Shown: piece after piece, positions 9,716 through 30,834 of the stretch | How positions within the stretch are numbered: position 1 is the stretch's first letter | Layout of the letters: each line of letters opens with the position of its first letter | From: Patescibacteria group bacterium | GTDB taxonomy: Archaea > Nanobdellota > Nanobdellia > Pacearchaeales > GW2011-AR1 | NCBI GenBank assembly: GCA_051269935.1 | Contig: JBNMFJ010000003.1 | Location: forward strand, 1 to 32,122 | DNA: 32,122 nucleotides | Reading direction: 5' to 3' | Made by a program: the position numbers and the translations under genes | Notes under the pieces: generated by a model | Told to the model about the DNA's origin: nothing | What the model saw: the letters and a program-made list of their open reading frames with translations, nothing else | Database searches by the model: none

Positions 9716-9752
9716 CTTATAGAATTTAAGAAAAACAACTTTATATACATAA

Positions 9753-11893: not shown

Positions 11894-12011
11894 CTCTGAT
11901 GTAATCGAAGGCGCGAAGATATAATCAAACTATTGATTCTGGGGGTTTGAGCAAAACGCTTCTAAAAACAAAATAATAAACATTTTTTATATGCATTTTG
12001 CGAATAGTGAG
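11894..12011 (+). other. tRNA-associated structured element, copy A
   Basis: Collinear motifs and hairpin positions shared with 30677-30802 downstream of tRNA-Leu. Confidence 0.65.
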
Positions 12012-12064
12012 CCTCCGAGCTCGTTACTAGAAGGGTGCCTTTTCACCCTTTCGGTATTCATATT
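12012..12064 (+). repeat. Direct repeat copy 2 of the tRNA-Arg 3' end + trailer
   Basis: CCTCCGAGCTCGTTACTAGAAGGGTGCCTTTTCACCCTT..., 171 nt after copy 1. Confidence 0.95.
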
Positions 12065-12122
12065 ATTATATCTAGATTCCGCCCCCCAATAATCTTATAA
12101 ATCTCTTTAGCACAAGTAAACC

Positions 12123-13565
12123 ATGTCAGAAAAACCAGATGCCAAAGGTATCACAATAACAAAAGAACAAGACATAGCAGATTGGTATGAACAAGTCTGC
12201 CTAAAATCAAATATCGCAGATTTCGGTCCATCAAAAGGAACAATAATCATCAGGCCAAAAGGATACTTCATCTGGGAACAAATCACCAAATACTTCAACA
12301 CTAATATCAATGACAAACGAGGAGTAGAGAATGCCTTCTTTCCCCTCTTTATTCCAGAATCATTCTTCAAAAAAGAAGCACAACACGCAGAAGGATTCGC
12401 ACCTGAAGTAGCATGGATTGATAAAGAGCTTACAGGAGAAGGCGAAAGACTAGCAATTAGACCAACATCAGAAACCATCATCGCAGATTCATTCAGTAAA
12501 TGGTTACGCTCATACAAAGACTTACCAATGAAAGTAAATCAATGGTGTAACGTCGTAAGATGGGAAACCAAAGCGACAAAATTATTCCTAAGAGGAAGAG
12601 AGTTTATCTGGCAAGAAGGACATTGCCTCTACCAAACAAAAGATGAATGCGAGGAAGATACACTAGGAATAATCCAAGATTACCAAACATTAGCTAAAGA
12701 CCTATTGGCAATCCCAACAATTATAGGATTAAAAACCCAAAAAGAAAAATTCGCCGGAGCAGACCAAACATATACTATTGAGGGGTTTATGCCAGATGGC
12801 AAGGCGCTTCAGTCCGGAACTTCCCATAATCTAGGACAGAATTTTGCAAAAGCCTTCGATATTAACTACATCGGACAAGATGAAAAACAACATATTCCAT
12901 ACCAGAATTCCTGGGGCCTTTCATATCGTATAATGGGTGGCTTAATAATGACTCATTCTGACAACAAAGGATTAGTCCTACCGCCAAAAGTATCCAGAAA
13001 TAAGCTAGTAATAACCCCACTCTTCTTTAAAGGAAAAGAAGAAGAAGCACTAGCTAAAGCTATAGAACTAAAAGAAACACTACAAGAATTTAACCCAATC
13101 TTAGATGAAAGAACAGAAGTGAAGCCCGGAGCAAAATTCTCTGAATGGGAAATGCAAGGAATACCACTTCGAGTTGAAATTGGCCCAAAAGACATTGAAG
13201 CAAACCAAGTAATAGTCGTACAAAGAAACAATAATATAAAGCACACAGTTCCATTAGATGAGCTAAACCTACGAATATCCGTTATTCTAGACAAGATGCA
13301 TACAGAACTATATGACAAAGCAAATGAGACCCTTCAAAATAATATCACAGAGGTAAGTTCCTGGGATACCTTCAAAAGCACAATCGAAAACAAAAAAATC
13401 GCAAAAGTATCCTTTTGTAACACAACAGCCTGTGAAGAAGATATAAAGGAAGAAACAAAGGCTACCTCTAGATGCATTATTCTAAACACAAAGCCAACAA
13501 ACAAGGAATGCGTCAAATGCCAAAAGAAAGCAACGGTAGAAATCTATTTCTCTAAATCATACTAA
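12123..13565 (+). CDS. proS: Proline--tRNA ligase (archaeal/eukaryote type)
   Basis: IRPTSET, QWCNVVRWE...FLRGREFIWQEGH, GKALQSGTSHNLGQNF, C-terminal Zn domain ending in SY. Confidence 0.97.
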   Translation: MSEKPDAKGITITKEQDIADWYEQVCLKSNIADFGPSKGTIIIRPKGYFIWEQITKYFNTNINDKRGVENAFFPLFIPESFFKKEAQHAEGFAPEVAWIDKELTGEGERLAIRPTSETIIADSFSKWLRSYKDLPMKVNQWCNVVRWETKATKLFLRGREFIWQEGHCLYQTKDECEEDTLGIIQDYQTLAKDLLAIPTIIGLKTQKEKFAGADQTYTIEGFMPDGKALQSGTSHNLGQNFAKAFDINYIGQDEKQHIPYQNSWGLSYRIMGGLIMTHSDNKGLVLPPKVSRNKLVITPLFFKGKEEEALAKAIELKETLQEFNPILDERTEVKPGAKFSEWEMQGIPLRVEIGPKDIEANQVIVVQRNNNIKHTVPLDELNLRISVILDKMHTELYDKANETLQNNITEVSSWDTFKSTIENKKIAKVSFCNTTACEEDIKEETKATSRCIILNTKPTNKECVKCQKKATVEIYFSKSY

Positions 13566-13640
13566 ATCACAACATTCTTGTTTTGATTTATAAAATAGTA
13601 TTGTAATTTTTCAGTAATAGTACGTAAAATCATAATAATC

Positions 13641-13719
13641 TTTATATACTGATATGGGTAATAGAAGATACACACAACATATTGTGGTCTAAGGAGACTT
13701 TACCTACAACATATGGTGG
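13641..13719 (+). promoter_or_regulatory. TATA box plus tandem NrdR boxes upstream of nrdA
   Basis: TTTATATA at 13641; ACACAACATATTGTGG (13672-87) and CTACAACATATGGTGG (13704-19) are 32 bp apart and fit the consensus acaCwAtATaTwGtg. Confidence 0.8.
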
Positions 13720-16673
13720 TACAAACGAAAATGGTGATAAAGGTCAGAAAAAGAAGCGGAAAAATTGTCGAGTTAAATAGAGAGAAAATTGGACAGGCAA
13801 TTGGTAAATCTGTAACTTCAGTTGGATTTGGAGGGAGCTCTGAACTAGCAACAAGCTTATCAGATATTGTTATTGAGCGAATAAATATTGATGCAAAAGA
13901 TGATCAAGCGATAGTTTCTGTTGAGAAAATTCAAGACCTCGTAGAACGAGTATTAATCGAAGAAGGTCACTACGCAATAGCCAAGGCATATATTATTTAT
14001 AGAGAAAAAAGAAGAGAAGTCAGAGAAACTGTCATTGAAGGCATGGCTCAAAAAGGAATGAGTGGAAAATTAAGCATAAAGAAACGTAACGGCTCAATCC
14101 AACATTTCGACCTAAGTAAAGCACAAGCAAAATTAAACCGAGTATCGGTAGGATTTGAGAACCAAATTTCATACGAACTAATTACAAAAGAATTTATGAG
14201 AAACATCTTCGAAGGAATAGAAGCTCCAGATATCGACAAGGCATTAATCATGGCAGTTAGTTCATATATTGAGAAAGATCCAGCCTACAGCTTTATTGGA
14301 TCAAGATTATTCTTAGAAAAAATATACAGAGAAGTCTTTGGCCAAAAAGTTAACGATATGAACTTCCAAGATCTCTACACTGAATCATTCACAAAAAGTA
14401 TAAAGACTGGCCATGAAGATGGCCTATTAGATGACAGAATGTTAACCTTTGATTTCCAAAAAATAAGTGAAGCAATTAAGCCAAAAAGAGATTTATTACT
14501 CCAATACATGGGAGCACAAACATTATATGAAAGATATTTTATTAGAGTAAACAAACAAATCACAGAAACACCACAATATTTCTTTATGCGAGTAGCAATG
14601 GGACTAGCACTTGATGAAGAAAACAAAGAAGAAAAGGCCATTGAGTTCTACGAATTATTATCAACATTACGATTTATGTCTTCAACACCAACATTATTCA
14701 ACTCAGGACTAAAAAAATCTCAACTAAGCTCTTGCTATCTAACAACCGTAGAAGATGACCTAGGTGGAATCTTTAAAAATTATTCAGACAATGCTCAACT
14801 ATCAAAATGGTCCGGCGGACTTGGAAATGATTGGACAAACATTCGTGCAACAGGAGCACATATCAAAAGCACAGGAGTAGAAAGTCAAGGTGTTATTCCA
14901 TTCCTAAAAATTGCTAGTGATGTAACCGCAGCAATAAATAGAAGTGGAAGAAGAAGAGGAGCAACATGTGCATACCTTGAAACTTGGCACTTAGATGTAG
15001 AAGAATTTTTAGACTTACGAAAAAACACTGGAGATGACAGAAGAAGAACACATGATATGAATACCTCAAATTGGATACCAGACTTATTTATGAAAAGAGT
15101 AATGAACAATGAAGAATGGACATTATTCTCTCCAAACGAAGTACCAGAATTACACGAAACATATGGAAGCGACTTTGAAAGACGATATATTGAGTATGAA
15201 CAAAAGGCAAAGGCAGGAAAAATGGAACAAAACAAAACAGTAAGTGCCACAAAACTTTGGCGAAAAATGATTTCTATGCTATTCGAAACAGGTCATCCAT
15301 GGATTACATTTAAAGATCCATGCAACATCAGATCACCCCAAGATCACGTCGGAGTAATACACTCATCAAACCTATGTACAGAAATTACATTAAACACATC
15401 AAAAGATGAAATCGCAGTATGTAATTTAGGGTCAATAAATCTCGCTTCACATGTAAATAGCATCGGAGAAATAGATTATGACTTAATGAAAAAAACAGTA
15501 TTCACCGCAATCAATATGCTAGACAATGTAGTCGACCTAAACTTCTACCCAACAATCGAGGCAAAGAATTCAAACTTAAAACACAGGCCAATCGGCCTAG
15601 GAATCATGGGACTACAAGATTTATTCTTTAAAATGAATCTTGCATTTGACTCACCAAAGGCACTAGATACCTCAGACGAATTAATGGAAAACATTTCCTA
15701 CAACGCAATCATGGCATCCTCAACAATAGCGTCAAAAAAAGGAAGTTACAGTTCTTTCCCAGGATCTAAATGGGATAGAGGAATTTTCCCTCTAGACACA
15801 ATAGAATTACTCGAGAAAGAAAGAGGAATGCCAATTGAAGTATCAAAGAAGAAAAGGTTAAACTGGCAATTCCTAAAAGAATATGTAAAAGAACACGGAA
15901 TGCGAAATTCAAATACAATGGCAATCGCACCAACCGCAACAATCTCAACCATCAGTGGATGCTATCCTTGCATTGAACCAATCTACAAAAACATCTATGT
16001 AAAAAGCAACATGAGTGGAGAATTTACAATTATCAACAGCTATCTTATTCACGATTTGAAAAAATTAAATCTATGGAATGATACAATGATAGACAAACTA
16101 AAATATTACGATGGAAACCTTTCCCAAATTAATGATGTACCAATAGAACTTGCAAACAAATACAAAGAATCCTTCGACGTTGACCCAATGGTATCAATCA
16201 TGCACAATGCCCTTCGAGGAAAATGGATAGATCAAAGTCAATCCTTTAATGTGTTTATCAAAGGAACCTCAGGAAAACTCATAAGCGATGTATACCAATA
16301 TGCTTGGAGAGCTGGATTAAAAACAACCTATTATCTACGTTCCCTTGCCGCAACACAAATTGAAAAATCAACCTTAAGCGCAAAAGAATTTGGATTTACC
16401 CAAAAAAGAGAATATAAAGATGAAGAACCAAAAACAACAAACAATATACCAACTCTTGTTCCATCAACATTAGTAAATCCAAACGTAATTGAACAAGAGA
16501 GAATTAAAGAATTAGAACAACCCCAAGAAAACCAAAATACCCAAACAACCCCAATGCCCCTATTACAACAAAATAATAAACCAACAGAACAATCAAGCTC
16601 AATTTTTAATCCAAGTGGAGCACCAATTAAACTCTGCCGAATTGAAGACCCTGATTGCGAGGCTTGTCAGTAA
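13713..16673 (+). CDS. nrdA: Class I ribonucleotide reductase alpha subunit with two N-terminal ATP-cones
   Basis: VRKRSG and IKKRNG ATP-cone starts, STPTLFN, QLSSCYL, SSNLCTEI, APTATIS, KTTYY, C-terminal CEACQ. True start may be ATG 13731. Confidence 0.97.
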   Translation: MVVQTKMVIKVRKRSGKIVELNREKIGQAIGKSVTSVGFGGSSELATSLSDIVIERINIDAKDDQAIVSVEKIQDLVERVLIEEGHYAIAKAYIIYREKRREVRETVIEGMAQKGMSGKLSIKKRNGSIQHFDLSKAQAKLNRVSVGFENQISYELITKEFMRNIFEGIEAPDIDKALIMAVSSYIEKDPAYSFIGSRLFLEKIYREVFGQKVNDMNFQDLYTESFTKSIKTGHEDGLLDDRMLTFDFQKISEAIKPKRDLLLQYMGAQTLYERYFIRVNKQITETPQYFFMRVAMGLALDEENKEEKAIEFYELLSTLRFMSSTPTLFNSGLKKSQLSSCYLTTVEDDLGGIFKNYSDNAQLSKWSGGLGNDWTNIRATGAHIKSTGVESQGVIPFLKIASDVTAAINRSGRRRGATCAYLETWHLDVEEFLDLRKNTGDDRRRTHDMNTSNWIPDLFMKRVMNNEEWTLFSPNEVPELHETYGSDFERRYIEYEQKAKAGKMEQNKTVSATKLWRKMISMLFETGHPWITFKDPCNIRSPQDHVGVIHSSNLCTEITLNTSKDEIAVCNLGSINLASHVNSIGEIDYDLMKKTVFTAINMLDNVVDLNFYPTIEAKNSNLKHRPIGLGIMGLQDLFFKMNLAFDSPKALDTSDELMENISYNAIMASSTIASKKGSYSSFPGSKWDRGIFPLDTIELLEKERGMPIEVSKKKRLNWQFLKEYVKEHGMRNSNTMAIAPTATISTISGCYPCIEPIYKNIYVKSNMSGEFTIINSYLIHDLKKLNLWNDTMIDKLKYYDGNLSQINDVPIELANKYKESFDVDPMVSIMHNALRGKWIDQSQSFNVFIKGTSGKLISDVYQYAWRAGLKTTYYLRSLAATQIEKSTLSAKEFGFTQKREYKDEEPKTTNNIPTLVPSTLVNPNVIEQERIKELEQPQENQNTQTTPMPLLQQNNKPTEQSSSIFNPSGAPIKLCRIEDPDCEACQ

Positions 16674-16678
16674 ATAAA

Positions 16679-17671
16679 ATGATAATTAATAATAACAAAA
16701 CAGATCCAAATAAAATTCTTCCAATGACCTACAAATGGGCGAGACAACATTACAAAGATGGAGTTGCAAACAATTGGACACCAGAAGAAGTCCCAATGCA
16801 AAACGACTTAGAACATTGGAAATCAGATCATATTCTGAGCGATGACGAAAGAAGATTAATTATGTGGAACTTAGGGTTTTTTTCAACTGCAGAATCCCTA
16901 ACAGCAAATAATATAGTACTTGCAGTATACAATCATGTAACAAATGCTGAGTGCCGACAATACTTACTCAGACAAGCATTCGAAGAAGCAATTCACACTG
17001 ACACATTCATCTATTGCTGTGACTCATTGGGACTAGACCCAGAAGAAATTTATTCAATGTATGAGACAATTCCCTCAATCAAAGATAAGGATGATTTTAT
17101 TATAGAAATCACAAGCTCAGTATTAGATCCTCACTTTAAAACAGACACACTAGAAAACATGCAAAAGTTCCTAAAGGACTTAATCGGATTTTACGTAATC
17201 ATGGAGGGAATATTTTTCTACGCCGGATTCGCAATGATGCTAGCATTAAAACGCCAAAACAAAATGGTCGGAATCGGAGAACAGTTCGAATTCATAATGC
17301 GTGACGAGTCACTTCACCTTGCATTCGGATGCGACTTAATTAACACAATCAAGCAAGAAAACCCAGAAATATGGACTCCTGGATTTCAACAAGAAATTCT
17401 ACAATTAATTCATCAAGCAGTTGAACTAGAAAAAAAATACAGCTATGATGCATGCCCAAGAGGATTACTTGGAATCAATGCGGAACAATTCGCAAACTAC
17501 GTAGAACACATAACAGACAGACGACTAGAGCGAATTGGACTCCCACTTCAGTATAACACAGAAAACCCTTTCCCATGGATGAGCCAATCAACAGACCTCT
17601 CAAAAGAAAAAAACTTCTTCGAGACAAGAGTAACCGAATACCAAACTGCTGGAAATTTAAGCTGGGATTAA
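16679..17671 (+). CDS. nrdB: Ribonucleotide reductase beta subunit, class Ic (Mn/Fe, R2c) type
   Basis: W.PEEV, FFSTAESL (E ligand), EEAIHTDTF (F at the radical Tyr position), MEGIFFY, RDESLH, NFFETRVTEY. Confidence 0.93.
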   Translation: MIINNNKTDPNKILPMTYKWARQHYKDGVANNWTPEEVPMQNDLEHWKSDHILSDDERRLIMWNLGFFSTAESLTANNIVLAVYNHVTNAECRQYLLRQAFEEAIHTDTFIYCCDSLGLDPEEIYSMYETIPSIKDKDDFIIEITSSVLDPHFKTDTLENMQKFLKDLIGFYVIMEGIFFYAGFAMMLALKRQNKMVGIGEQFEFIMRDESLHLAFGCDLINTIKQENPEIWTPGFQQEILQLIHQAVELEKKYSYDACPRGLLGINAEQFANYVEHITDRRLERIGLPLQYNTENPFPWMSQSTDLSKEKNFFETRVTEYQTAGNLSWD

Positions 17672-17703
17672 ATATATAAAGAAAAGAAACCCCAACTTAA
17701 AAT

Positions 17704-17853
17704 ATAAAAACTAAAGTAATCATAACTACTGATCTTATAGTTCTAATCCTAATAATCTCCATTACATCTCAACTGTCAAACTTGGGTAATAAAGATAATA
17801 TCGAAGATTATTATAAATGTCCAAATAGTTGTATCGATGGATATTGTATATAA
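17704..17853 (+). pseudogene. Remnant of a small secreted Cys-motif protein (no ATG; ATA first codon)
   Basis: IKTKVIITTDLIVLILIISITSQLSNLGNKDNIEDYYKCPNSCIDGYCI*; signal-like N-terminus joined to a CPxxCxDGxC terminus. Confidence 0.4.
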
Positions 17854-17871
17854 CAATATCATAAATTCTCC

Positions 17872-19923
17872 CTACCCACTAACTTCTTCTAACCTAGAAG
17901 ACTCACCCTTACTCACCCGAATAATTCGATCAACAAAACCTTCCATCTTTTGTTCATGAGAAACCAAAATCAATTGTTCAGTATCCAGTGCATCAAACAA
18001 GTCCCTCATCTTATCAATTTGCTCAGCAGCAAACCCATCAGTAGGCTCATCTAAAATTAACAAATTCTTAGTCTTTAATCGAGACAACATAGAATTCAAA
18101 ACTTGATGTAAACTAAGCCGATATGACAAAGCAACAGCAGTCCTCTCACCACCACTCAAAAATGCATATTCAATTTCATAATCCTGCTGCATAATGATCG
18201 GTGTAAAATCCTCATCCAATCGAACACTTAAATCATCAGAGACCAAAAGACTAAACCATTCAGTAAACACATTGGAAAATTCCATACGCAACTTTGACAA
18301 GACATTTTTTTCAGTCAACATAATAACACTCAAGAATTTCTCATTAACCCAATCTTGTAAATTACGCAAATAAACTATTTGCAATTTAACTTTTTCCTTC
18401 TTCGTAACCTCAATATTCAACTCTTCTAAACGCTCACGAACAAGTTTCAATTCTCTCTGTTTCTCCGCAAAAGTAATTTCATGTAAACGAAGCTTTTTAT
18501 TCAATGCATCTTCTCGCGCAATAACTTCAGTAGATTTTATTTTATCTTCTTCAGATAATTCTTGAGAAACTAACTCGGTAACACGAGCTTCTAATTGTAA
18601 TATTTCCTGCTTAGTTCTATCCAAAGTAAACGCCTCACTTTGCAATTTAATTTTGACATTTTTTTGCTGCTCAAACTTCATCTGCGCTTCACGTAAATTT
18701 CTCAAATCAGATTCATACCCAGAAATTAAATCAGAAACTTTTTCAATATCAGTAGAGAGCTGATTTCTCTCAACAATTTTATGCTCCAAAGAATGGCTTA
18801 ACTCATCAATTTCAAACCCAGTTCTTTTATCAATTTTCTCCTTATGTTCAGAAGAAACAATTTGCTGACAAGTCGGGCAATTATCCATAGACATAATTTT
18901 TTGCTTCAATGTAAAAGGGGCCTCTTTCTGAGATTCAATACGAGTAATAGCCAAATTTATATCCATATACATTTTCCTCTTTTCATCTAAAACACCTTTG
19001 TGCTTAATCAACAATTCAGAAACGGCATTCAAACGATCCACTGAGAAATCAGCAGGATCTGAAATCTCTCGTTGCATAACAACCATATCACGAGAGAGCT
19101 TAACTTCCAACTCTCGCTTACCAATCAAAAGAGCCTTTTCCCGAGCCAAATCAGATTCAAGTTCCCGAGCCTTTTTCACCTTTTCTTCAATAACCTTACG
19201 TTCCAAAGTGACAGCTTCTTTTTGTTTAGATGATTCACGAACTTCCAAATCTAAATTATTCACTTCTCGAGCTAATCCAATTTTTCTCTCAGATTCAATT
19301 TGTAATTTTTCTTTTAATAATTGCAATTCAGCAATCAACACTTCTTTAATTTTGATTGAGTCCTTAATTTTAGAAAGCAGTATACCAGCATTTTCCTTAA
19401 TTCTTTTATATCGATCAAACCCAAAAATATGACGAATAGTATCAAGCCTCACTTCAGGCCTCTCCTCAATAATAGCTTTCATTTCTTCCTGCGGAGTATA
19501 AACCGTAAACTTATACAACAGGTTAGATTTTTTCGCAAACTCACGAGGATATTCAAGTAAATCAATCACCCTACTTTTCATCTCACTAGTAGATAATTCT
19601 TCACGAACACCGTTAGTAGTAATAACATTAGAATCCTGAGTAATCGTACCACCTTTTCCTTTTTTAATAGTTCGCTCCATATCAATAACAGAAGAATCAA
19701 TCTCAACAGTCACCCGAGCATAGGCTGAGTCTGCCCCATGACGCAACAAGCTACTTCCTTTCTGACCAGGCTGTAGACCAAATAAAGCAAATTGCAAACC
19801 TAACAAAATAGAGCTTTTACCCGAACCAATATTACCCAAAAGTAAACTAGCACCTTTCTCGAAAGGAACATCAACAGACTCATAACTTCGAATATTTTTC
19901 AAAGACAAATGCTTAATAATCAT
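17872..19923 (-). CDS. rad50: Rad50 DNA double-strand break repair ATPase
   Basis: Walker A GNIGSGKSS, Q-loop, CPTC zinc hook in coiled coil, LSGGE, LLILDEPT, VSH. Confidence 0.92.
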   Translation of the reverse strand: MIIKHLSLKNIRSYESVDVPFEKGASLLLGNIGSGKSSILLGLQFALFGLQPGQKGSSLLRHGADSAYARVTVEIDSSVIDMERTIKKGKGGTITQDSNVITTNGVREELSTSEMKSRVIDLLEYPREFAKKSNLLYKFTVYTPQEEMKAIIEERPEVRLDTIRHIFGFDRYKRIKENAGILLSKIKDSIKIKEVLIAELQLLKEKLQIESERKIGLAREVNNLDLEVRESSKQKEAVTLERKVIEEKVKKARELESDLAREKALLIGKRELEVKLSRDMVVMQREISDPADFSVDRLNAVSELLIKHKGVLDEKRKMYMDINLAITRIESQKEAPFTLKQKIMSMDNCPTCQQIVSSEHKEKIDKRTGFEIDELSHSLEHKIVERNQLSTDIEKVSDLISGYESDLRNLREAQMKFEQQKNVKIKLQSEAFTLDRTKQEILQLEARVTELVSQELSEEDKIKSTEVIAREDALNKKLRLHEITFAEKQRELKLVRERLEELNIEVTKKEKVKLQIVYLRNLQDWVNEKFLSVIMLTEKNVLSKLRMEFSNVFTEWFSLLVSDDLSVRLDEDFTPIIMQQDYEIEYAFLSGGERTAVALSYRLSLHQVLNSMLSRLKTKNLLILDEPTDGFAAEQIDKMRDLFDALDTEQLILVSHEQKMEGFVDRIIRVSKGESSRLEEVSG

Positions 19924-21128: not shown

Positions 21129-21238
21129 CTTCCTTAAATTTCTCTTTCTCCTCCTACACCAATACATAATAATTTCCTTTTAAACTTGATTATACCAAGA
21201 AATAACTATTAGAAAAATACTGTACCTAATAGCCAAGC

Positions 21239-21613: not shown

Positions 21614-21703
21614 ACATATAACAATCCCTCATTTATTATAAACACTTCGTAATCACTGTTCCAGCATAGTAATCCTTTTTAATCAAATCAAACTTCCCAA
21701 AAC

Positions 21704-22333: not shown

Positions 22334-22394
22334 AAATATCAAATCCCTAAAACAACTAAATTTAAAAGTGAATAATCCCCCTCCCTAAGTATAC

Positions 22395-25256
22395 ATGGTA
22401 GACAAACCCCAATCAATAAACGAGCAAGAATTAGCAATCCTAGAATTTTGGTCAAAAAACGACACATTCAAGAAAACATTAGAAAAAACCAAAAACAACG
22501 AAGAATACGTATTCTACGACGGACCACCATTTGCAACAGGAAGCCCCCATTACGGACACTTACTAGGATCGATAATAAAAGACATCTATGGCCGATTCCA
22601 CACAATGCAAGGAAAGTACGTCAGACGAGTCTGGGGATGGGACTGCCACGGCCTACCAATCGAAAACATAGCAGAAAAAGGCCTAAAAATAAATTCCAAA
22701 GATGAAATCGAAAAAATGGGAGTCAAAAAGTTCAATGACTATTGCCGAAGCAAAGTACTCTCATTCACAGATGAATGGAAAAGAGTAATTAACAGAATTG
22801 GTAGATGGGTTGACATGGACAGCTGCTACAAGACAATGGACAACAACTATATTGAATCAGTTTGGTGGGCATTCAAACAAATGTACGATAAGGGATTTAT
22901 ATACGAAGGGGAAAAAGTATTAATGTTCTGCCCCAGATGTTCAACTCCATTAGCAAAGGCAGAAATAGCAATGGACAATTCCTATAAAAATGTAAAAGAC
23001 CTAACAGTAACCGTCAAATTCAAACTAATAAACCCAAACCTACAAACACAGAAAGACACCTTTGCACTAGCCTGGACAACAACCCCCTGGACACTTCCCT
23101 CAAACTTAGCATTAAGCGTAAACCCAAAAATAGACTACGCCTACATATACGACAAATCTGAAGATTGCAATTTCCTTTTAGCAGAAGAACTCATTGGAAC
23201 ATTCTACAAATCTTCAGAAGAATACGAAATCGTAAAAAAACTCAAAGGAGCAGAACTAGAAAACATAACCTACGAGCCATTATTCCCCTATTTCAAAGAC
23301 AACGCAAACAGCTTCAAAATTCTATTAGGAGATTTTGTAACAGCTCAAGACGGAACAGGAATAGTCCATATCGCACCAGCATTCGGTGAAGAAGATTATG
23401 CTGTCGCAAGAAAATACCAAATTAAGATGGTACAACCAGTTGATGACAAAGGTAAATTCACTCAAGAGGTTACCCAATACGCAGGTCAATTCGTACACGA
23501 CACAAATCTAGAAATTGTGAAATATCTAAAAATAAATAACAAAGCAGTAATGAGCAAAAAAATAGAACACGAGTATCCATTCTGTTACAGATGCGACACA
23601 AAATTATTATACCGAGCAATCCCAGCATGGTTCGTCGACATCCAAAAAATTAAACCAAGATTATTAGAATTAAACCAAGACTTAAATTGGCATCCAGGAT
23701 TCCTAAAAGACGGACGAGTACAATATTCAGTCGAAAACGCACCTGATTGGAACATCTCAAGAAACAGATACTGGGCAACAGCAATACCAATTTGGATGAA
23801 TGAAGACAAAGAAAAAATAGTAATTGGTAGTATTGAAGAACTCAAAAAATACGCAACAAATATGCCAGACAAAGAAATAGATTTACACAAAGACTACCTA
23901 GACGACATCATCCTTAAAAAAGATGGAAAACAGTATGAAAGAATCCCGGAAGTAATCGACTGTTGGTTCGAATCCGGTTCAATGCCATTTGCACAATATC
24001 ATTATCCATTCGAGAATAAACATCAATTCGAAAAGAACATGCCCGCAGACTTCGTAGCAGAATACATCGCTCAAGTACGAGCATGGTTTTATTATATGAA
24101 TGTAATTTCCGCAATCATATTCGATAAAGTCCCATTCAAAAACATAGTAACTACCGGAACAGTAATGGCCGAAGATGGAAACAAAATGAGCAAGAGCATA
24201 GGAAACTTTGTCGACCCAATGATAATCATAGAAAAATTTGGAGTTGATGCATTACGATTCTACCTAGCAAGTTCTCCATTAATGAATGCCGACAATGTAA
24301 ATTTCTCAGAAAAACAGGTTGAGGAAGTCTTCAAGAAAGTAATCGTATTATTACACAATGTAAAAAACTTCTACGCACTCTATCCCAATATCCAAGAGGA
24401 AGAACTCAAAGCTGAAAATATTATGGACAAATGGATCCTAAGCAAAAGCAATAAACTATCCAAACACGTAGAAGAATATCTCAAGGCATACAATACCGTC
24501 AAAACAGGAGCAGAAATAAAAATATTCATAGATGACCTTTCAACATGGTACGTACGGCAAACAAGGGATAGATTTAATGTAGGAGACCCTCAAGCAAAAG
24601 CAACCCTCAAATATGTCCTACAACAACTAAGTACCACAATCGCTCCAATAATGCCATTCATAGCTGAACAGATCCATCAAACTATCAAAAAAGAAAAAAC
24701 ATCAGTTCACATGGAGAACTACACCAAATATGACAAATCATTAATCGACGAAGAATTAATCAATACAATGGAAATAACACGTGAAGCAGTTTCAACAGGA
24801 TTAAGGCAAAGAGACCAAGCACAAATAGGGCTAAAGTGGCCATTACAAAAAGTAACCATTGAAACTGACTCCGGATTTGAATTAGACAAACTAGAAACAA
24901 TAATAAAAGGCCAACTCAATGTTAAAGAAATAGATTTCAAAACAACAACAGATGTTGAATTAAAAGTAACCCTAGACACACAAATGAATCCAGAACTAGA
25001 AGCAGAAGGATATACCAGAGAAATAATCCGAAAAATACAAGCCGCTCGAAAGAAGGCAGAATTAATTAAAGATGACAAAATAATCATAACACTCAAAACA
25101 GAATTTGACAAAGACCTAGATACTCACCAAAAACTGCTACAAGATACCGTAGGAGCCCAATCTATAAAATTTTCAGAGCCCAATACTAGTGCAATACATA
25201 GCGAAGATGGAAAAATCAAAAAAAAGCAATATTCCTTTTCATTCAGCAAAATATAA
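22395..25256 (+). CDS. ileS: Isoleucine--tRNA ligase (type 2)
   Basis: DGPPFATG.PHYGH, GWDCHGLP, AWTTTPWTLPSN, DWNISRNRYW, KMSKS. Confidence 0.97.
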   Translation: MVDKPQSINEQELAILEFWSKNDTFKKTLEKTKNNEEYVFYDGPPFATGSPHYGHLLGSIIKDIYGRFHTMQGKYVRRVWGWDCHGLPIENIAEKGLKINSKDEIEKMGVKKFNDYCRSKVLSFTDEWKRVINRIGRWVDMDSCYKTMDNNYIESVWWAFKQMYDKGFIYEGEKVLMFCPRCSTPLAKAEIAMDNSYKNVKDLTVTVKFKLINPNLQTQKDTFALAWTTTPWTLPSNLALSVNPKIDYAYIYDKSEDCNFLLAEELIGTFYKSSEEYEIVKKLKGAELENITYEPLFPYFKDNANSFKILLGDFVTAQDGTGIVHIAPAFGEEDYAVARKYQIKMVQPVDDKGKFTQEVTQYAGQFVHDTNLEIVKYLKINNKAVMSKKIEHEYPFCYRCDTKLLYRAIPAWFVDIQKIKPRLLELNQDLNWHPGFLKDGRVQYSVENAPDWNISRNRYWATAIPIWMNEDKEKIVIGSIEELKKYATNMPDKEIDLHKDYLDDIILKKDGKQYERIPEVIDCWFESGSMPFAQYHYPFENKHQFEKNMPADFVAEYIAQVRAWFYYMNVISAIIFDKVPFKNIVTTGTVMAEDGNKMSKSIGNFVDPMIIIEKFGVDALRFYLASSPLMNADNVNFSEKQVEEVFKKVIVLLHNVKNFYALYPNIQEEELKAENIMDKWILSKSNKLSKHVEEYLKAYNTVKTGAEIKIFIDDLSTWYVRQTRDRFNVGDPQAKATLKYVLQQLSTTIAPIMPFIAEQIHQTIKKEKTSVHMENYTKYDKSLIDEELINTMEITREAVSTGLRQRDQAQIGLKWPLQKVTIETDSGFELDKLETIIKGQLNVKEIDFKTTTDVELKVTLDTQMNPELEAEGYTREIIRKIQAARKKAELIKDDKIIITLKTEFDKDLDTHQKLLQDTVGAQSIKFSEPNTSAIHSEDGKIKKKQYSFSFSKI

Positions 25257-25343
25257 ATTTTACCGTCGATAAACTTTTTTTTACCTCTTTATAGGGGGAC
25301 TTTGCTGAGAAACATTTAAATACTAGTTTTTGCTTACTCTACC

Positions 25344-26147
25344 ATGATAGTTAAGGATGAATTTTTAAGTCGATTAAGAAAAATATTTGACTTAAATCTA
25401 TATGAGGTGAAAGTCTGGACTGCATTACTTTCAAGAGGAACATCAACAGCCGGAGAGTTATCTTCCATAAGTGACGTACCACGGTCAAGAACATACGATA
25501 TTCTAGAAAGCCTTGAGAAAAAAGGATTTATTGTTATGAAATTAGGCAAACCTATCAAATTTGTAGCACTTAAACCAGAAGAAGTAATTGAAAGAGTAAA
25601 GAAAAATCTTGTAATTACGGCTCAAGAGAAATCAAAACGATTAGAAACTCTAAAGGGAGATGAGGTATTAGAAGAATTAAACCTAATATTCACTGACGGA
25701 ATCAAATTTGTTGAACACACAGACTTATCAGGAGCACTAAAAGGAAGACAGAATGTATATAATCACCTAGATATGCTTGTACGAGAAGCAGAAGAGTCAA
25801 TTACACTTGTAACAACCGCAGACGGTTTAAGCCGAAAAATAGAAATATTATTGCCATCACTTCAAAAGGCAAAGAAAAGGGGAGTCGAGATTAAAATAGC
25901 AGCTCCAATCACTGAAGAAAATAAGGCAGTAGCAAAAGAATTAGCAGAATACGCAGATGTACGAGACGTAGATGGATTACAAGCACGATTTATGATTATT
26001 GATGGAAACCAGGTAATGTTTATGTTAATGAATGATACAGAAGTTCATCCAACATATGACCTAGGAGTATGGATCAATACACCATTCTTTTCTCTCGCTT
26101 TAAGTCAACTCTTTGACATTGCTTGGAAAGACATGAAACCATTATAA
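25344..26147 (+). CDS. TrmB-family transcriptional regulator/chromatin protein
   Basis: LNLYE.KVW.ALL..G..TA.ELS..S.VPRSR.YD.L.SLE.KG wHTH followed by a PLD-like effector domain. Confidence 0.9.
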   Translation: MIVKDEFLSRLRKIFDLNLYEVKVWTALLSRGTSTAGELSSISDVPRSRTYDILESLEKKGFIVMKLGKPIKFVALKPEEVIERVKKNLVITAQEKSKRLETLKGDEVLEELNLIFTDGIKFVEHTDLSGALKGRQNVYNHLDMLVREAEESITLVTTADGLSRKIEILLPSLQKAKKRGVEIKIAAPITEENKAVAKELAEYADVRDVDGLQARFMIIDGNQVMFMLMNDTEVHPTYDLGVWINTPFFSLALSQLFDIAWKDMKPL

Positions 26148-26199
26148 TTTTTATCTTTCTAATAAATACTAAACAATAATTAATCCATAGAAATTTTTC

Positions 26200-27870
26200 C
26201 TACATTTCTTCTAACACTTCAATACCCAACAAGTCCAAAGATTTCTCTAAAGTAATCCTAAACGCATCAACCAAGGCAAGCCTAAACCCTTCGGGTGTCC
26301 CACCTAAAACCGGACAAGAATGATAAAACTCATTAAACAGTTTCGCAAGATTATACGAATAACTAGCAATCACTGAAGGAGTCAAAGTAGAGTATGCCTG
26401 AGAGATAACTTCAGGATATGAATCAATCGCCTTTAATAATAAAATCTCAACATCCTTCAAATCAATAATTTCTATCTTCGCCTTACTTCTCGACTTATTC
26501 AAGATAGAAGAAGCCCGAGCAAAGCTATACAATAAATACGGGCCAGTATCACCCTCAAAAGCCAAGAACCGATCTAAATCAAATACCATATTATGATCCC
26601 GATAATGTTTCAAGTCTCCATACTTAATAGCCGCCAACGCAATCACACGACTCCTATGGTCTAACTCTTTCTTACTCAAACCTAAGGTCTTCTCTTCCAA
26701 ATTCTTATAAGCAGAAGATATAGTCTCATCCACAACATCCTGCATATATACAGTCTTACCCCGCCTAGTCGAAAACTTTTTCCCATCTTTATCTAAATAC
26801 AATCCATGACCAACGTGAACACAATTATCAGCCCAAGAATTTCCCATCTTTTTCAAAATGGTAAACAACTGCTTAAAATGCAAAGACTGCTCAGTACCAA
26901 CTTCATAGATTGCTTGGTCAAAAGAATACCGATCATACCGATCAAGAGCCGCAGCAATATCACGTGTAATATATGTAGAAGTCCCATTCGACTTCTCAAT
27001 TAATACAACACCCAATCCTTCTTCCTTCAAATCAACAACCAAAGCACCATCATCCAAAATAAGAAGTCCCTTCTCTTTCAATAGAGCGACAACAGAAGCC
27101 ATACTCTTATTATACAAACTCTCACCACCAATCTCAGTAAAACTCACATCCAATAAATCATAAATCTTATCAAATTCAATAATAGACAACTCTCTAAACT
27201 TTTCCCATAAAGTAACACTGTCAATATCACCCTGTTCCAAACGAGCAAAAGCTTCACGAGATTCATCAACCAAAGATTTATCCGCACTAACCCTTACATA
27301 TAATTCCTGCAAATGACCAATTGGATCTTTAGCCAATTTATCAGCATCTCCCCATTTCAAATACGCCAAATTCAATTTCCCATATTGTCCACCCCAATCA
27401 CCCAAATGATTAATCGTTGAAACAGTAGCACCATTCGCCATAGAAATACGATTCAAAGCCTCACCAATAATAGTTGAACGTAAATGTCCAATCCCAAAAG
27501 GCTTACCAATATTCGGAGAGCTCATATCAATAATAATTTTTGTACCTTTCAAACTATCCAGTTGCCCCCAATTCTCCCTCTTTACTTCAGCCAAAACTCG
27601 CTGCGCCAACCAAGCCTTATTCATAAAAAAATTAACATACGGACCCGTTGAATCAACACCCGAAACCTCTTTACCCAAATCCTTTCGTAACTTCTCACAT
27701 AAATCAACGGCAATCTCACTAGGCGACTTCTTAAATTCCTTCGCCAAGCTAAAACAAGGAAACGCAAAATCCCCCATCTCCAATTTCGGAGGAACCTCTA
27801 CCATATTCATAAGAGTAGCCTCGTCCAAGGAAACTTCCTGCTTAAGCAAATCAATAACAAATTCTTTCAT
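26200..27870 (-). CDS. argS: Arginine--tRNA ligase
   Basis: GPYVNF, SSPNIGKPFGIGHLRSTIIG, NHLGDWG, KFSTRRG, FEGDTGPYLLY, C-terminal EEM. Confidence 0.97.
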   Translation of the reverse strand: MKEFVIDLLKQEVSLDEATLMNMVEVPPKLEMGDFAFPCFSLAKEFKKSPSEIAVDLCEKLRKDLGKEVSGVDSTGPYVNFFMNKAWLAQRVLAEVKRENWGQLDSLKGTKIIIDMSSPNIGKPFGIGHLRSTIIGEALNRISMANGATVSTINHLGDWGGQYGKLNLAYLKWGDADKLAKDPIGHLQELYVRVSADKSLVDESREAFARLEQGDIDSVTLWEKFRELSIIEFDKIYDLLDVSFTEIGGESLYNKSMASVVALLKEKGLLILDDGALVVDLKEEGLGVVLIEKSNGTSTYITRDIAAALDRYDRYSFDQAIYEVGTEQSLHFKQLFTILKKMGNSWADNCVHVGHGLYLDKDGKKFSTRRGKTVYMQDVVDETISSAYKNLEEKTLGLSKKELDHRSRVIALAAIKYGDLKHYRDHNMVFDLDRFLAFEGDTGPYLLYSFARASSILNKSRSKAKIEIIDLKDVEILLLKAIDSYPEVISQAYSTLTPSVIASYSYNLAKLFNEFYHSCPVLGGTPEGFRLALVDAFRITLEKSLDLLGIEVLEEM

Positions 27871-27933
27871 AATACCCTATTCAAAATCAGATTTATTAGG
27901 CTTTCGGTGGACATTCAGAATACACAAAACCAA

Positions 27934-28034
27934 TTTTGCATTTTAGTGAAACAAAGACAAGGCTTGAGGTTACGTGGCGTAGTAGTTTACGCGAGTGTTC
28001 TCATAACGAAGTATCTGTTCAATAAAATGCAAAA
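27934..28034 (-). ncRNA. ~100-nt rod-like hairpin between rli and argS (candidate structured RNA or MITE)
   Basis: Perfect 12-bp terminal IR TTTTGCATTTTA/TAAAATGCAAAA enclosing nested stems, including GCGTA/TACGC. Confidence 0.4.
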
Positions 28035-28038
28035 GAAC

Positions 28039-29781
28039 CTAGAATGCGACCCATTCCTTGCTAGCCTTCTGCTCACGATCCAAAACGGAGCCCTTCTTAT
28101 TAATACGAGGACGACCAGATTCTTTTTCCTTCCTCAAAGTAACATCCAAACTAGACAACAATTCACTAATCCCGCCAGCAAAATCTTTAATCCCATGAGC
28201 ACGACCAATCACTCCACTCTCACCAGTAAAATTAATAACACTATCCGCCAAATAAGAAACCAACAATAAATCATGATCAATAACAAACGCCGTCTTTTCT
28301 CTCTCAACCATAACTTCCTTAATAGTTTTAGCAACACTAATTCTTTCTTCAACATCCAAATACGCAGACGGCTCATCAATCAAATAAATATCAGCATCCT
28401 TCGCCAAACATCTCGCAATAGATAAACGCTGCAATTCACCACCAGATAATTCTTTAATTTTCTTAGTTTGAATTATCCCCAATTTAAACTTCGAGAAGAG
28501 TCGTTTATTAATTTTCTCAGTAAATACAATATCTCGAACAACAGTCTCATCATCACTATACAAATGCTGATCCTTATACGAAATTTCAAGATCCAAATCT
28601 AGCTTCACAGGAATCCCATTTCCATCCTTCAGAATAACCTTCTCCTTACCAGCCAAACATTTAACAAATGTACTTTTCCCAGTACCATTTTTACCAAGTA
28701 TACCAACAACATTATTCTCATATATATCCCCAGTCTCAACTTCCATTGAAAAAGACTCACCATATTTCAAACTAAACGCCGGCCAAGAAGAAATCTTATT
28801 ACCAGAAAATTGTTGATTCTTAGTGAAATTAAAAACAATCTCCTTATCACGAATCCTTACATTCTCCTCCCTCAAAAATCCAGACAAATATGAATTAACC
28901 CCATTCTTCGAGGCACGAATCTGAGACACAATTCCAAAGCTTCCCTGGTTACCATAAAAAATATGCAAGTCATCAGTCAAATAATCTAACAAAAGCAAAT
29001 CATGCTCAACAACAATAACCATCTTCCCAATACTAATCTTCTTAATATAATCACTCACCCGGAGTCTCTCCGCAATATCCAAATAGGCCAAAGGTTCATC
29101 AAAGAAATACACATCCGCTTCCTTAATCGTAGAAGCCAAAATAGCAACCTTCTGCAACTCACCACCAGATAACTTATTCAACTTATTATCTAACAAATGC
29201 CCGACCCGCAATTCCTCTGCAAGCTCTTTAATCCTAGCCTCATCCCCTCGTTGCAACAACAAATCAATAACAGGTAAATCAATAGAAAGTAAAGATAGAT
29301 TTTGAGGCTTATAAGAAACAACCTTCCCAGTCAAAGCCTGTAAATACGTCAATAATTCAGTCCCTTGGAAAAACTGCTTAATATCATCTTCAGTCGCATC
29401 CTTCCCCAAATTAATAGTCTCCTGGCCCGCCAACAGCTTAACCGCAGTAGTCTTACCAATACCATTACGCCCCAACAAACCTAAAATTCGACCTGGCTTA
29501 GGAATCGGTAAACCATACAAAGCAAAACTATTAACACCATACCGATGAACTAAATCATCAGGATTCACTCCTGGCAAATTCACAATATCAATAGCACCAA
29601 AAGGACAACGACGCTCACAGATCTTACACCCAATACAAGTCTCTTCGTTAATAACTGCCTTCTCGCCAATAACAATACAAGTATCCGCTTCCTTTTTCTC
29701 AACAGGACAATACTTCTTACATTCAAAACCACACAAAGTAGGTTTACATTTATCCTTATTAATAACAGCTATACGAGTCAT
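28039..29781 (-). CDS. rli: ABCE1/RLI ribosome-recycling ATPase
   Basis: N-terminal 2x[4Fe-4S] Cys motif and two ABC domains (GRNGIGKTT, GKNGTGKST, LSGGELQ twice). Confidence 0.96.
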   Translation of the reverse strand: MTRIAVINKDKCKPTLCGFECKKYCPVEKKEADTCIVIGEKAVINEETCIGCKICERRCPFGAIDIVNLPGVNPDDLVHRYGVNSFALYGLPIPKPGRILGLLGRNGIGKTTAVKLLAGQETINLGKDATEDDIKQFFQGTELLTYLQALTGKVVSYKPQNLSLLSIDLPVIDLLLQRGDEARIKELAEELRVGHLLDNKLNKLSGGELQKVAILASTIKEADVYFFDEPLAYLDIAERLRVSDYIKKISIGKMVIVVEHDLLLLDYLTDDLHIFYGNQGSFGIVSQIRASKNGVNSYLSGFLREENVRIRDKEIVFNFTKNQQFSGNKISSWPAFSLKYGESFSMEVETGDIYENNVVGILGKNGTGKSTFVKCLAGKEKVILKDGNGIPVKLDLDLEISYKDQHLYSDDETVVRDIVFTEKINKRLFSKFKLGIIQTKKIKELSGGELQRLSIARCLAKDADIYLIDEPSAYLDVEERISVAKTIKEVMVEREKTAFVIDHDLLLVSYLADSVINFTGESGVIGRAHGIKDFAGGISELLSSLDVTLRKEKESGRPRINKKGSVLDREQKASKEWVAF

Positions 29782-29857
29782 GTTTTGAAAAATAGAAATA
29801 TAGTTTTAAAGGTTGTGATAAGAATAAATCAAGACAATGATATAAATAAAGTAAAAC

Positions 29858-30073
29858 TTATTCAGAAGATTGATTCTTATGCCCACACTCCGGACAAAAC
29901 TTTTCTCCACCCTCTAAAGACCAATTACATTCAGCACACCTTAAAACATCTTTTCTCTCTTCGACAATAGCTTCATAGCCCTCACGACCAGATAACACCT
30001 TCCCCATAATCGATCGTATCTTATCCTGTTCCTCACCAGCTTCTTGAAATTTTCGTAAATCTATTCCATCCAT
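29858..30073 (-). CDS. Small zinc-ribbon protein
   Basis: C-terminal CAEC-x10-CPECG. Confidence 0.8.
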   Translation of the reverse strand: MDGIDLRKFQEAGEEQDKIRSIMGKVLSGREGYEAIVEERKDVLRCAECNWSLEGGEKFCPECGHKNQSSE

Positions 30074-30074
30074 A

Positions 30075-30281
30075 TTATGACTTCCTCTTTAAGACTTTAT
30101 AATCTTTTTCAAACTGTTTTTGTCTAACAAAAGTAACAACACCCTGAACCATCAAACCACATCCAGTCAAAAACCAGAACCAATCAGAATCAATTTCACG
30201 AAAACCAAGTAATTTAATAAGTGATCCAACAATCATTAACACACCTAACAACAATACCGGGAAATATGATACGTAATTCAT
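30075..30281 (-). CDS. Small 2-TM membrane protein
   Basis: Two hydrophobic helices and a basic tail; abuts the zinc-ribbon gene. Confidence 0.7.
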   Translation of the reverse strand: MNYVSYFPVLLLGVLMIVGSLIKLLGFREIDSDWFWFLTGCGLMVQGVVTFVRQKQFEKDYKVLKRKS

Positions 30282-30332
30282 ACTAATTCAACAGCAATAG
30301 ATTTTATAAATCTTATTCTATTTAATACATCA

Positions 30333-30500
30333 ATGGCAAAAACTAATTGTGACCTATGTAAGAATCCAATCCAATACGGATTAATGAATAAGATATTAGG
30401 AACAACCATAACAATCAAAAGAGAAGAGAAAAAAGAGAAAAAAATAGTCTGCCAAGATTGCCAAAAAGAACACAACAGCACAATAAAAGACCAATTCTAA
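30333..30500 (+). CDS. Small 55-aa CxxC...CxxC zinc-finger protein (below the ORF-track cutoff)
   Basis: MAKTNCDLCKNPIQYGLMNKILGTTITIKREEKKEKKIVCQDCQKEHNSTIKDQF*; TTTATAAA at 30303. Confidence 0.8.
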   Translation: MAKTNCDLCKNPIQYGLMNKILGTTITIKREEKKEKKIVCQDCQKEHNSTIKDQF

Positions 30501-30569
30501 AAATTAGTCCAAAATATTCAAACCCTATCTAAACCTTTATAAGTTGTTTTTATTTGAATTGTTTATTAT

Positions 30570-30652
30570 GAGGGAATGCCGGAGCGGCCAAACGGGCTGG
30601 ACTTAAGATCCAGTAGCTTATGCTTACGGGGGTTCGAATCCTCCTTCCCTCA
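30570..30652 (+). tRNA. tRNA-Leu(TAA)
   Basis: GAGGGAA/TTCCCTC acceptor, CTGGA-CTTAAGA-TCCAG, long variable arm, GTTCGAATC, discriminator A. Confidence 0.95.
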
Positions 30653-30676
30653 TATAATATTATCTTTAGATAATAT

Positions 30677-30802
30677 CTATTCTGAAAGAATGATTCTAAG
30701 TCACGAAGATTATTCCAAGTCACTTGACTCACTGGGGTCGAGCAATTTGCTCTCTTTCATGCGAAGCATATCCAAAGAGTGTGAATTGTGAGACAGAATC
30801 CT
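30677..30802 (+). other. tRNA-associated structured element, copy B
   Basis: Homologous to 11894-12011; preceded by palindrome 30657-76 and ending in GAATCCT, which matches the tRNA-Leu T arm. Confidence 0.65.
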
Positions 30803-30834
30803 ACTGACAGTTTAAATCAGAATCAAAACAATAT

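Follow-up and report, generated by a model that had tools for sequence, protein, structure and literature searches.

A strand-biased hairpin family in partial tRNA copies of a DPANN-type archaeal lineage, probably a mobile DNA element

Introduction

Behind two unrelated tRNA genes, tRNA-Arg(TCG) and tRNA-Leu(TAA), a 32,122-nucleotide contig of a small genome (JBNMFJ010000003.1 of assembly GCA_051269935.1; "the window" denotes this whole stretch) holds trailers that resemble each other, which raises the question of whether they carry the same element, and of what kind. An initial annotation had described this likeness as a structured element downstream of both genes and had read it either as a tRNA-targeting non-autonomous element or recombination site, or as a co-transcribed RNA involved in tRNA processing. 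Here we report that each trailer carries one copy of a long hairpin (the hairpin element) that belongs to a multi-copy family, lies in partial tRNA copies and follows the compositional skew of its contig. We consider it probable that the copies at both loci belong to a non-autonomous mobile DNA element which is found in a DPANN-type archaeal lineage and acts via single-stranded DNA.

The window is contig C3 of genome G000, which comprises 655,717 bases in 52 contigs, with 35% G+C and an estimated completeness of 77%. We treated G000 as a DPANN-type archaeon because its gene complement is archaeal in type, the window encoding ABCE1/RLI, topoisomerase IB and a ProRS with an archaeal/eukaryal C-terminal domain, and because its relatives have small genomes (0.5-1.2 Mb).

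Results

The Arg and Leu trailers each carry one copy of the same hairpin

Compared directly, the Arg and Leu elements align locally with a score of 25, whereas dinucleotide shuffles score 15.4 +/- 2.3. Since this score was also reached by 2 of 1000 shuffles and by 32 of 2000 random genome windows, the pairwise likeness is modest, and it is limited to the 5' half. A strict pattern drawn from the two copies and run over the 401 genomes of the order found further copies in five genomes, and the reversed pattern, used as a control, found none. A match in G409 was dropped as coding-like sequence, and the match of the first pattern to the Arg copy and to a copy behind tRNA-Lys on contig C19 was set aside, as it ran through GAATAGTGA, which is not the 3' strand of the hairpin in those two copies. 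BLAST searches with the Arg trailer against 40 relatives gave matches confined to the A-rich loop and were uninformative.

A covariance model built from six pattern-found copies (R1) missed the Arg copy. The alignment behind a second model, R2, comprised 42 hits from 34 sources; R2 was built from these 42 copies, all from other loci, together with the Leu copy, the Arg copy being excluded. R2 recovered the Arg copy with 38.5 bits and the Leu copy with 47.3 bits, and the next best match in the window scored 14.8 bits; in a genome-wide scan the Arg copy had an E value of 1e-5. The two trailers each carry one copy of the same element, and the match of R2 to the Arg copy is the decisive support for this. 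What had been described as a chain of small blocks is, in its core, a single long hairpin.

This hairpin has about 15 base pairs (bp) or more, is flanked by GA on each side and is followed, 3' of the second GA, by RTAR. In the family alignment GCAATTYGCNNNNNN pairs with NNNNNNGYRAATTGY, and the base of the stem is formed by GCAATTTGC... with ...GTGAATTGT. The latter pairing takes the place of a GAGC/GCTY hairpin proposed earlier, for which there is no such pairing. Likewise, a CAAAAT/ATTTTG stem proposed for the Arg copy is not the pairing of the family in the R2 alignment. GYGAATWGTGAG, once regarded as an equivalent block of both trailers, covers the 3' strand of the hairpin plus GA at Leu and, at Arg, the last GC of the hairpin, GA, ATAG and TGAG.

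The structural model proposed at first was thus largely wrong. Within the 15-bp helix, 86.7% of cells are paired, compared with 29-50% when the partner strand is shifted by 1-3 columns, and 11 of the 15 pairs show compensatory changes, with an observed score that none of 500 shuffles reached. The lower eight pairs are not an artefact of model fitting, because they are absent from R1, with which the alignment was made. Of 578 cells, 66 are G.T and 19 are A.C, so that only one strand folds. GA is present 5' of the hairpin in 39 of 40 rows and 3' of it in 36 of 40, and the tetranucleotide after the 3' GA on the folding strand reads ATAG in 9, GTAA in 8 and GTAG in 6 of the 40 rows.

The initial annotation had been unable to assign the element to a named RNA family, and no Rfam family matches it: over the window, only the three tRNAs passed the gathering score of Rfam 15, and for both 451-nucleotide (nt) regions searched at E <= 10 the best non-tRNA match had an E value of 0.6 and 17 bits, against a cut-off of 75. 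Two further readings were rejected by eye, a K-turn or C/D box having its bulge on the wrong strand and a hammerhead lacking CUGAUGA.

The genomes available for comparison are incomplete metagenome-assembled genomes (MAGs). Within the genus, R1 found matches in 37 of 49 genomes (E <= 0.01), with a maximum of 11 copies per genome. Beyond it, with one genome scored per genus, R2 matched 20 of 150 other genera in the family at E <= 1e-3; the highest count in a single genome was 28 copies. G000 itself contains four copies in the genome-wide R2 scan, which lie behind tRNA-Arg, tRNA-Leu(TAA), tRNA-Lys(TTT) on C19 and tRNA-Pro on C33. In G439 (C10:34-211 and C135:1656-1833), R2 matches recur every 56 nt, with 66-nt matches overlapping; these arrays are back-to-back hairpins with little or no tRNA-derived spacer.

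The hairpin lies within a partial second copy of its tRNA

The coordinates of both loci are collected in Table 1. At the Arg locus a direct repeat of 53 nt, 94% identical between its copies and made up of 12 nt of tRNA end and 41 nt of trailer, encloses the insert, for which the repeat search also gave the short repeat TGGGGGTTCGA versus TGGGGGTTTGA. The Arg copy is ordered TGGGGGTT-T-GA[hairpin]GA-ATAG-TGAG and is followed by CCTCCGAGCTCG. At the Leu locus the order is ACTGGGGT-C-GA[hairpin]GA-GACA, followed by GAATCCTACT, which repeats the tRNA-Leu T-loop string GAATCCTCCT (30636-30645) over 10 nt with 90% identity. A copy of the 3' side of the host T-arm behind each element, as first noted, is real, and so are the blocks described in the 5' parts of the trailers, which represent a linker module with a small hairpin. 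The Leu linker module occurs again behind three other tRNAs of G000, namely Leu-TAG on C40, Ser-TGA on C49 and Val-GAC on C44. Inserts of the Arg and Leu type measure 118-160 nt and contain no open reading frame (ORF).

Table 1. Positions of the features of the Arg and Leu loci in the window
Feature	Position	Strand	Basis
tRNA-Arg(TCG), intact, host gene of copy 1	11781-11852	+	ARAGORN; Rfam tRNA 61.9 bits
Direct repeat 1: last 12 nt of tRNA-Arg, 13-bp trailer hairpin (11854-11885), TATTCATATT	11841-11893	+	repeat search
Arg insert, 118 nt, between the direct repeats: linker with TAATCGAAG (11902-11910), small hairpin AATCAA/TTGATT (11923-11938), T-stem 5' copy TGGGGGTT (11940-11947), then the long hairpin	11894-12011	+	sequence reading; repeat search
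Core of copy 1: T-stem 5' copy, T, GA (11949-11950), long hairpin (11951-12001), GA (12002-12003), ATAG (12004-12007)	11940-12007	+	R2 38.5 bits, E 5e-7
Direct repeat 2: tRNA-Arg 3' end and trailer repeated at a displaced site, hairpin weakened by three mismatches	12012-12064	+	repeat search
tRNA-Leu(TAA), intact, host gene of copy 2	30569-30653	+	ARAGORN; Rfam
Linker module ...CGAAGATTATTCCAAGTCACTTGACTC with small hairpin CAAG/CTTG (30716-30726), preceded by the Leu trailer hairpin (about 30659-30676)	30654-30730	+	sequence reading
Core of copy 2: T-stem 5' copy ACTGGGGT, C, GA (30740-30741), long hairpin (30742-30789), GA (30790-30791), GACA	30731-30795	+	R1 60.5 bits; R2 47.3 bits
Decayed copy of tRNA-Leu T-loop and T-stem 3' side, GAATCCTACT	30796-30805	+	repeat search
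Unit doubled in part of the source population	30637-30792	+	read-contig joint 30792 -> six other letters -> 30637

We read the general architecture from the flanks of the 42 copies and from the tRNA-Arg(TCG) orthologues of 19 relatives. In the common order an intact tRNA is followed by a linker with a small hairpin, a copy of the 5' strand of a tRNA arm and Y-GA[hairpin]GA-RTAR; the loop is completed 3' of RTAR by its last 3-4 nt, after which the 3' strand of the arm and the tRNA 3' end follow. In many genomes the small hairpin repeats the T-stem 5' strand plus TTC in inverted orientation and adjoins the direct copy. The main site is the T-loop of a partial second tRNA copy, around positions 56/57, where TTC is replaced by Y...RTA. 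Rarer sites are the anticodon loop near 37/38 (L046, L059) and, upstream of the tRNA, the D-arm region of a partial copy of its 5' part (L031, L039 and the Glu locus of G314).

A called tRNA lies within 200 nt of 30 of the 42 copies and further off in three; the other nine, which have no called tRNA in the locus, are mostly contig-end tandem arrays in which pieces of tRNA ends persist. The 33 copies that share a locus with a tRNA divide into 17 in sense and 16 in antisense orientation relative to it. Sense hairpins are followed by an exact copy, 16-18 nt long, of the tRNA from the T-loop to the 3' end. In a census of four contigs, 33 of 38 copies were located within 300 nt of a tRNA, and directly 3' of 25 of the 38 there was an exact copy (at least 10 nt) of the local tRNA.

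Several neighbouring arrangements were observed alongside these copies. The linker modules behind Val-GAC (C44:1-285) and Ser-TGA (C49:1915-2030) of G000 lead into a partial T-arm copy with another, short insert in its T-loop (22-26 nt, AGGCCYTTAGGTCATCCC..GGGA), and behind Leu-TAG (C40:3340-3468) the partial T-arm copy has no insert, only TTGAGAAT; these may be a second insert family and a footprint. At L042 (G150:C1:299307-299381) and L040 (G003:C53) the duplicated flanks are of the usual kind, but their source is not a tRNA called by ARAGORN, so that an unusual tRNA or a different kind of structured RNA gene may have been the target. At L033 (positions 1620-1793, G411) a hairpin copy splits a tRNA-Ser-like gene, with an 8-nt anticodon-loop repeat, TCTAGAAA, on both flanks; ARAGORN calls this gene only when introns are allowed, and the loop string CTAG is self-complementary, so that a splice-like helix could form. 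On C19 of G000 (11751-13039, minus strand; L018), about 935 nt separate two full tRNA-Lys(UUU) genes, of which the downstream one contains a 21-nt intron and was labelled "tRNA-Stop" by ARAGORN. Between them are a small ORF of membrane-like type and a stray anticodon-arm copy, and the hairpin element and another split 3'-end copy follow. In the window, a copy of the tRNA-Met 3' end (30836-30859; about 24 nt, 14 of them exact) lies some 737 nt downstream of tRNA-Met (31596-31672, minus strand, called by ARAGORN). Together they bracket an ORF for a 199-residue YdjM-like membrane protein (30916-31515), an arrangement suggestive of a small insert that carries a gene and sits at a tRNA.

The folding strand follows compositional skew

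R2 was run over four contigs of 356-396 kb, and the weaker opposite-strand shadows of the same hairpins were removed. Independent of tRNA direction, 36 of the 38 copies lie on the C-rich strand, a strand assigned by composition. G314:C2 (whole-contig GC skew +0.057) has no copies on the plus strand and 18 on the minus strand, and G288:C1 (+0.301) has none and six; G123:C1 (-0.193) carries nine on the plus strand and two, its weakest (<30 bits), on the minus strand, and G288:C2 (-0.212) carries three and none. The tRNA genes of these contigs are distributed over the plus and minus strands as 8/15 (G314:C2), 12/8 (G288:C1), 8/9 (G123:C1) and 6/8 (G288:C2). The strand that folds is thus the C- and A-rich one, whichever way the tRNA points. 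For example, sense copies on G314:C2 occur at 10 of the 15 minus-strand tRNAs and at none of the 8 plus-strand tRNAs, one of which has an antisense copy. In G000, both copies on C3 (skew -0.197) are on the plus strand and the copy on C33 (+0.332) is on the minus strand.

The skew does not arise from gene orientation, since plus-strand coverage by long ORFs amounts to 0.35-0.55 in the four contigs. In addition, the G.T wobbles are unlikely to be a by-product of skew, because passive mutation pressure on a C- and A-rich strand would remove G.T pairs. The skews themselves are unusual: in G288:C1, G288:C2, G123:C1 and contigs C3 and C33 of G000, whole-contig GC skew amounts to 0.19-0.33, AT skew is opposite, and long ORFs are about evenly split between the strands.

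Copies probably move between isotypes, and the Leu unit differs in number within a population

The nearest relative of a hairpin is usually found at a different isotype in the same genome, with identities of 0.86 between the Leu-TAA and Ser-GCT copies of G314, 0.85 between its His and Gln-CTG copies and 0.87 between the Arg-TCG and Glu-TTC copies of G288. The Arg hairpin of the window is nearest to the His and Val copies of G314 and to the Pro copy of G000. In this clustering, four G123 copies labelled "none" were entered as one row and a weak copy at 154026 was omitted. Hairpin sequences do not follow isotype, although their flanks match the local tRNA.

At the orthologous tRNA-Arg(TCG) sites of 19 relatives, we found empty sites (L053, L058, L061, L066, L070), sites filled in sense (L054, L055, L057) or antisense (L056, L060, L067, L068), scarred sites (L052, L065, L069) and also filling of the anticodon loop.

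Tandem units occur in the family. Depth data came from contigs of two runs, X1 and X2, which are possibly the source of G000 and may not be independent of each other. The Leu unit had a depth of 67.5 in X1, against 46-50 in its flanks, and the joint that leads from its end through six letters back to its start had a depth of 20.6 in X1 and 13.7 in X2. The excess depth and the joint together indicate that part of the population has two tandem Leu units, the inner one followed by an intact tRNA-end copy; the joint itself could stem from a tandem allele or from a circle that such an allele gave rise to. Exact 127-nt terminal repeats on C33 and C44 represent assembly-graph cycles, which attest a real junction and give no copy number.

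Discussion

How, then, did the hairpins come to lie in duplicated tRNA ends? If they are mobile DNA, the element would move as, or be recognised in, single-stranded DNA in step with replication, its insertion would accompany duplication of the tRNA end, thereby sparing a working tRNA, and a trans-acting enzyme would do the mobilising. A single-stranded, replication-linked step is suggested by the one-strand wobbles and by the skew-linked orientation, as in IS200/IS605. The best-supported account is a non-autonomous mobile DNA element aimed at the loops of tRNA-gene arms, an account that does not explain the origin of the inverted piece or of the duplicate; we observed the element only alongside a duplicate tRNA end, by which the gene stays intact. 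The first reading of the trailers, a tRNA-targeting non-autonomous element or recombination site, is in line with the many copies, their patchy spread, the lack of an ORF, the tRNA-derived flanks, the tandem units and the difference in unit number; as a whole, that early interpretation is partly supported.

A number of observations count against mobility as single-stranded DNA. Covariation and G.U-type wobbles would fit an RNA equally well. Tandem copies are not independent counts, and when each locus is counted once the tally is 29 of 31; the two weak G123:C1 copies break the strand rule, two of the three G288:C2 copies sit in locally positive skew, and the C19 copy of G000 (skew -0.056, copy on the minus strand) is an exception, if an ambiguous one. 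The Arg insert had a depth of 49 and its flanks 44-46, so that it appears fixed in the source population; read depth gave no sign of an empty-site allele at Arg, which k-mer contigs cannot show. For neither window locus did we recover an empty and a filled site with identical flanks, and insertion is accordingly deduced from the comparison of relatives.

Moreover, no enzyme was found that tracks the hairpin, and Y1 transposase and TnpB do not. Of the 49 genomes of the genus, 12 have a Y1 transposase (PF01797); G000, G314, G022, G391 and G158 are not among them, and the first four of these carry 4-18 hairpin copies. TnpB (PF07282) exceeded its cut-off in 6 of the 49, mostly genomes without R1 matches, and was not detected in G000. 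A single tyrosine recombinase, of XerA-like type, is encoded in G000. Next to three solitary copies on G123:C1 there was no integrase or transposase; their neighbours encode HisG, ProRS, S8e, TFB and family-less proteins. Such absences of genes or elements are weak evidence, since the MAGs are incomplete. The window also contains a topoisomerase IB gene (8657-9778, minus strand, 373 residues), which encodes a tyrosine enzyme able to cut and rejoin DNA at specific sites and is a candidate for a link with the hairpin element.

A more specific form of mobility can be put forward tentatively, as a possibility to which we give rather low odds. Here the hairpin would be the active end of a new strand-specific, replication-coupled mobile element that recognises tRNA-gene stem-loops by their structure and not their sequence, inserts in their loops and copies part of its target by means of a host or unrecognised enzyme outside the known transposase families; by splitting copies at 37/38 and 56/57, such an element would be a source of non-canonical tRNA introns and fragments in DPANN archaea.

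Among known single-strand systems, repetitive extragenic palindromes (REPs) and REPINs with their RAYT (Y1 HUH) transposases, the ends of IS200/IS605 and palindrome-associated transposable elements (PATEs) resemble the hairpin element in being short imperfect hairpins that are present in many copies; they act as single-stranded DNA, as the hairpin element would. The IS200/IS605 family targets the lagging-strand template (PMC6006769), and GTAG-tagged REPs carry a conserved tetranucleotide beside the stem (PMC3733652). However, the REP tetranucleotide (GTAG/CGTC) is at the 5' head, as far as that source describes it (PMC3733652), whereas RTAR stands 3' of the hairpin on the folding strand. REPs are extragenic and without target duplication, and the part of the same source available to us reports no targeting of tRNA loops (PMC3733652); the hairpin element, in contrast, sits in loops of tRNA genes and its target is duplicated. 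Unlike REPs and IS200/IS605, the element does not co-occur with a Y1 transposase, nor with TnpB; the combination that characterises IS200/IS605, TnpA and/or TnpB without target duplication, was not observed in the hairpin family. In contrast to integron attC sites, it showed no R or L boxes, it has no integron integrase or cassette array, and it sits in tRNA copies. Integron attC sites are nevertheless akin to it, being recombination sites that are set by a conserved folded hairpin and not by sequence, with one active strand.

It is also conceivable, if unlikely, that the inserts are deletion remnants or cis-mobilisable mini-versions of integrative elements, with T-loop crossover by a tyrosine integrase, repeats that represent attL and attR, and a hairpin that was part of attP. 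Like the hairpin loci, the attL/attR duplications of tyrosine integrases (SSV- and pNOB8-type elements, integrative and conjugative elements, genomic islands) consist of an intact tRNA, an insert and, behind it, the tRNA 3' part once more, with breaks in the T-loop or anticodon loop; a direct repeat of a tRNA 3' part lies on both sides of the insert at Arg (53 nt, 94%) and at Leu (10 nt, 90%). The T-loop and the anticodon loop are known crossover sublocations of tRNA-targeting integrases. Larger ORF-bearing inserts with tRNA-end copies are found nearby, behind tRNA-Met and tRNA-Lys. Archaeal integrated elements do leave partial tRNA copies, as PMC9897764 describes. Yet the hairpin inserts are gene-free and only 118-160 nt long, and the hairpin splits the loop of the second copy just where a contiguous core site is expected. 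The same hairpin subfamilies recur at many isotypes with flanks matching the local tRNA, and even a single orthologous tRNA has copies in both orientations and at several positions; an att pair would have one orientation and one crossover position, whereas the family shows 17 sense and 16 antisense copies at T-, anticodon- and D-loop sites. No integrase was seen beside the copies inspected, and no ORF within the inserts, and the only PF00589 match in the 77% complete G000 (C25:2323-2811) is 5.7 kb from the nearest tRNA, where an integrase in or near the insert, or several per genome, would be looked for. Finally, a genome-wide strand bias that is independent of tRNAs, and follows GC skew, is not expected of double-strand sites.

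Of similarly low probability, in our view, is a functional RNA, either a co-transcribed processing or stability element or a scaffold with a tRNA-derived "guide" of 16-17 nt that steers a nuclease or recombinase to tRNA genes. Such an RNA would account for the covariation and for G.U-type wobbles on one strand only; tandem GA on both flanks could form sheared pairs, and the exact copy of 16-18 nt from the T-loop to the 3' end of the tRNA that follows sense hairpins resembles a scaffold-plus-guide arrangement. Against this, 16 of the 33 copies are antisense to the tRNA and orientation tracks GC skew rather than transcription units, which suits neither a guide nor the co-transcribed processing RNA that had been considered at the outset. 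The element is also patchy, R1 finding none in 12 of 49 genus genomes and R2 matching only 20 of 150 other genera, its copy number per tRNA varies even within a population, partners of the TnpB type are rare and mostly in copy-free genomes, and no Rfam family matches.

That the elements are relics of mobile bulge-helix-bulge (BHB) tRNA introns that entered T-loops and anticodon loops is very improbable: transposing non-canonical BHB introns (Thermoproteales and other archaea) are likewise related short inserts at the same loop positions in many tRNAs of one lineage, the insertion points near 56/57 and 37/38 coincide with known archaeal tRNA intron positions, and the L033 copy lies within a tRNA-Ser-like gene between anticodon-loop repeats, but both window copies are outside the intact, functional tRNA, their flanks (1 nt 5' of GA and about 7 nt 3' of GA) show by eye no BHB motif of two 3-nt bulges and 4 bp, removal of the hairpin does not restore the T-loop (TTC being replaced by Y...RTA), and the L033 gene is not called by default ARAGORN.

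REP/RAYT, IS200/IS605, an integrase att pair and a BHB intron thus each fail on a defining feature. What we found in the literature concerns partial tRNA copies from large integrated elements and REP families (PMC9897764, PMC3293823 and PMC3733652). Our search of open-access text, with supplements and subscription journals outside it, returned no published description of a hairpin element in tRNA loops, and the element is apparently undescribed.

A mobile hairpin that acts through single-stranded DNA would matter in several respects. Ultra-small archaea have few repeats, yet on a single contig as many as half of the tRNA loci are taken up by this element (11 of 23 tRNAs on G314:C2). In annotation it yields partial tRNA copies and spurious "intron" tRNAs, and it causes assemblies to end at tRNA genes. 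Moreover, strong GC skew together with the strand rule of the hairpins could help to map and orient replication in DPANN contigs. If single-stranded movement without a known transposase is true, it would be a sign that organisms with minimal genomes possess a mobilising activity which has so far gone unrecognised, and the element offers a concrete route to interrupted, duplicated or split tRNA genes.

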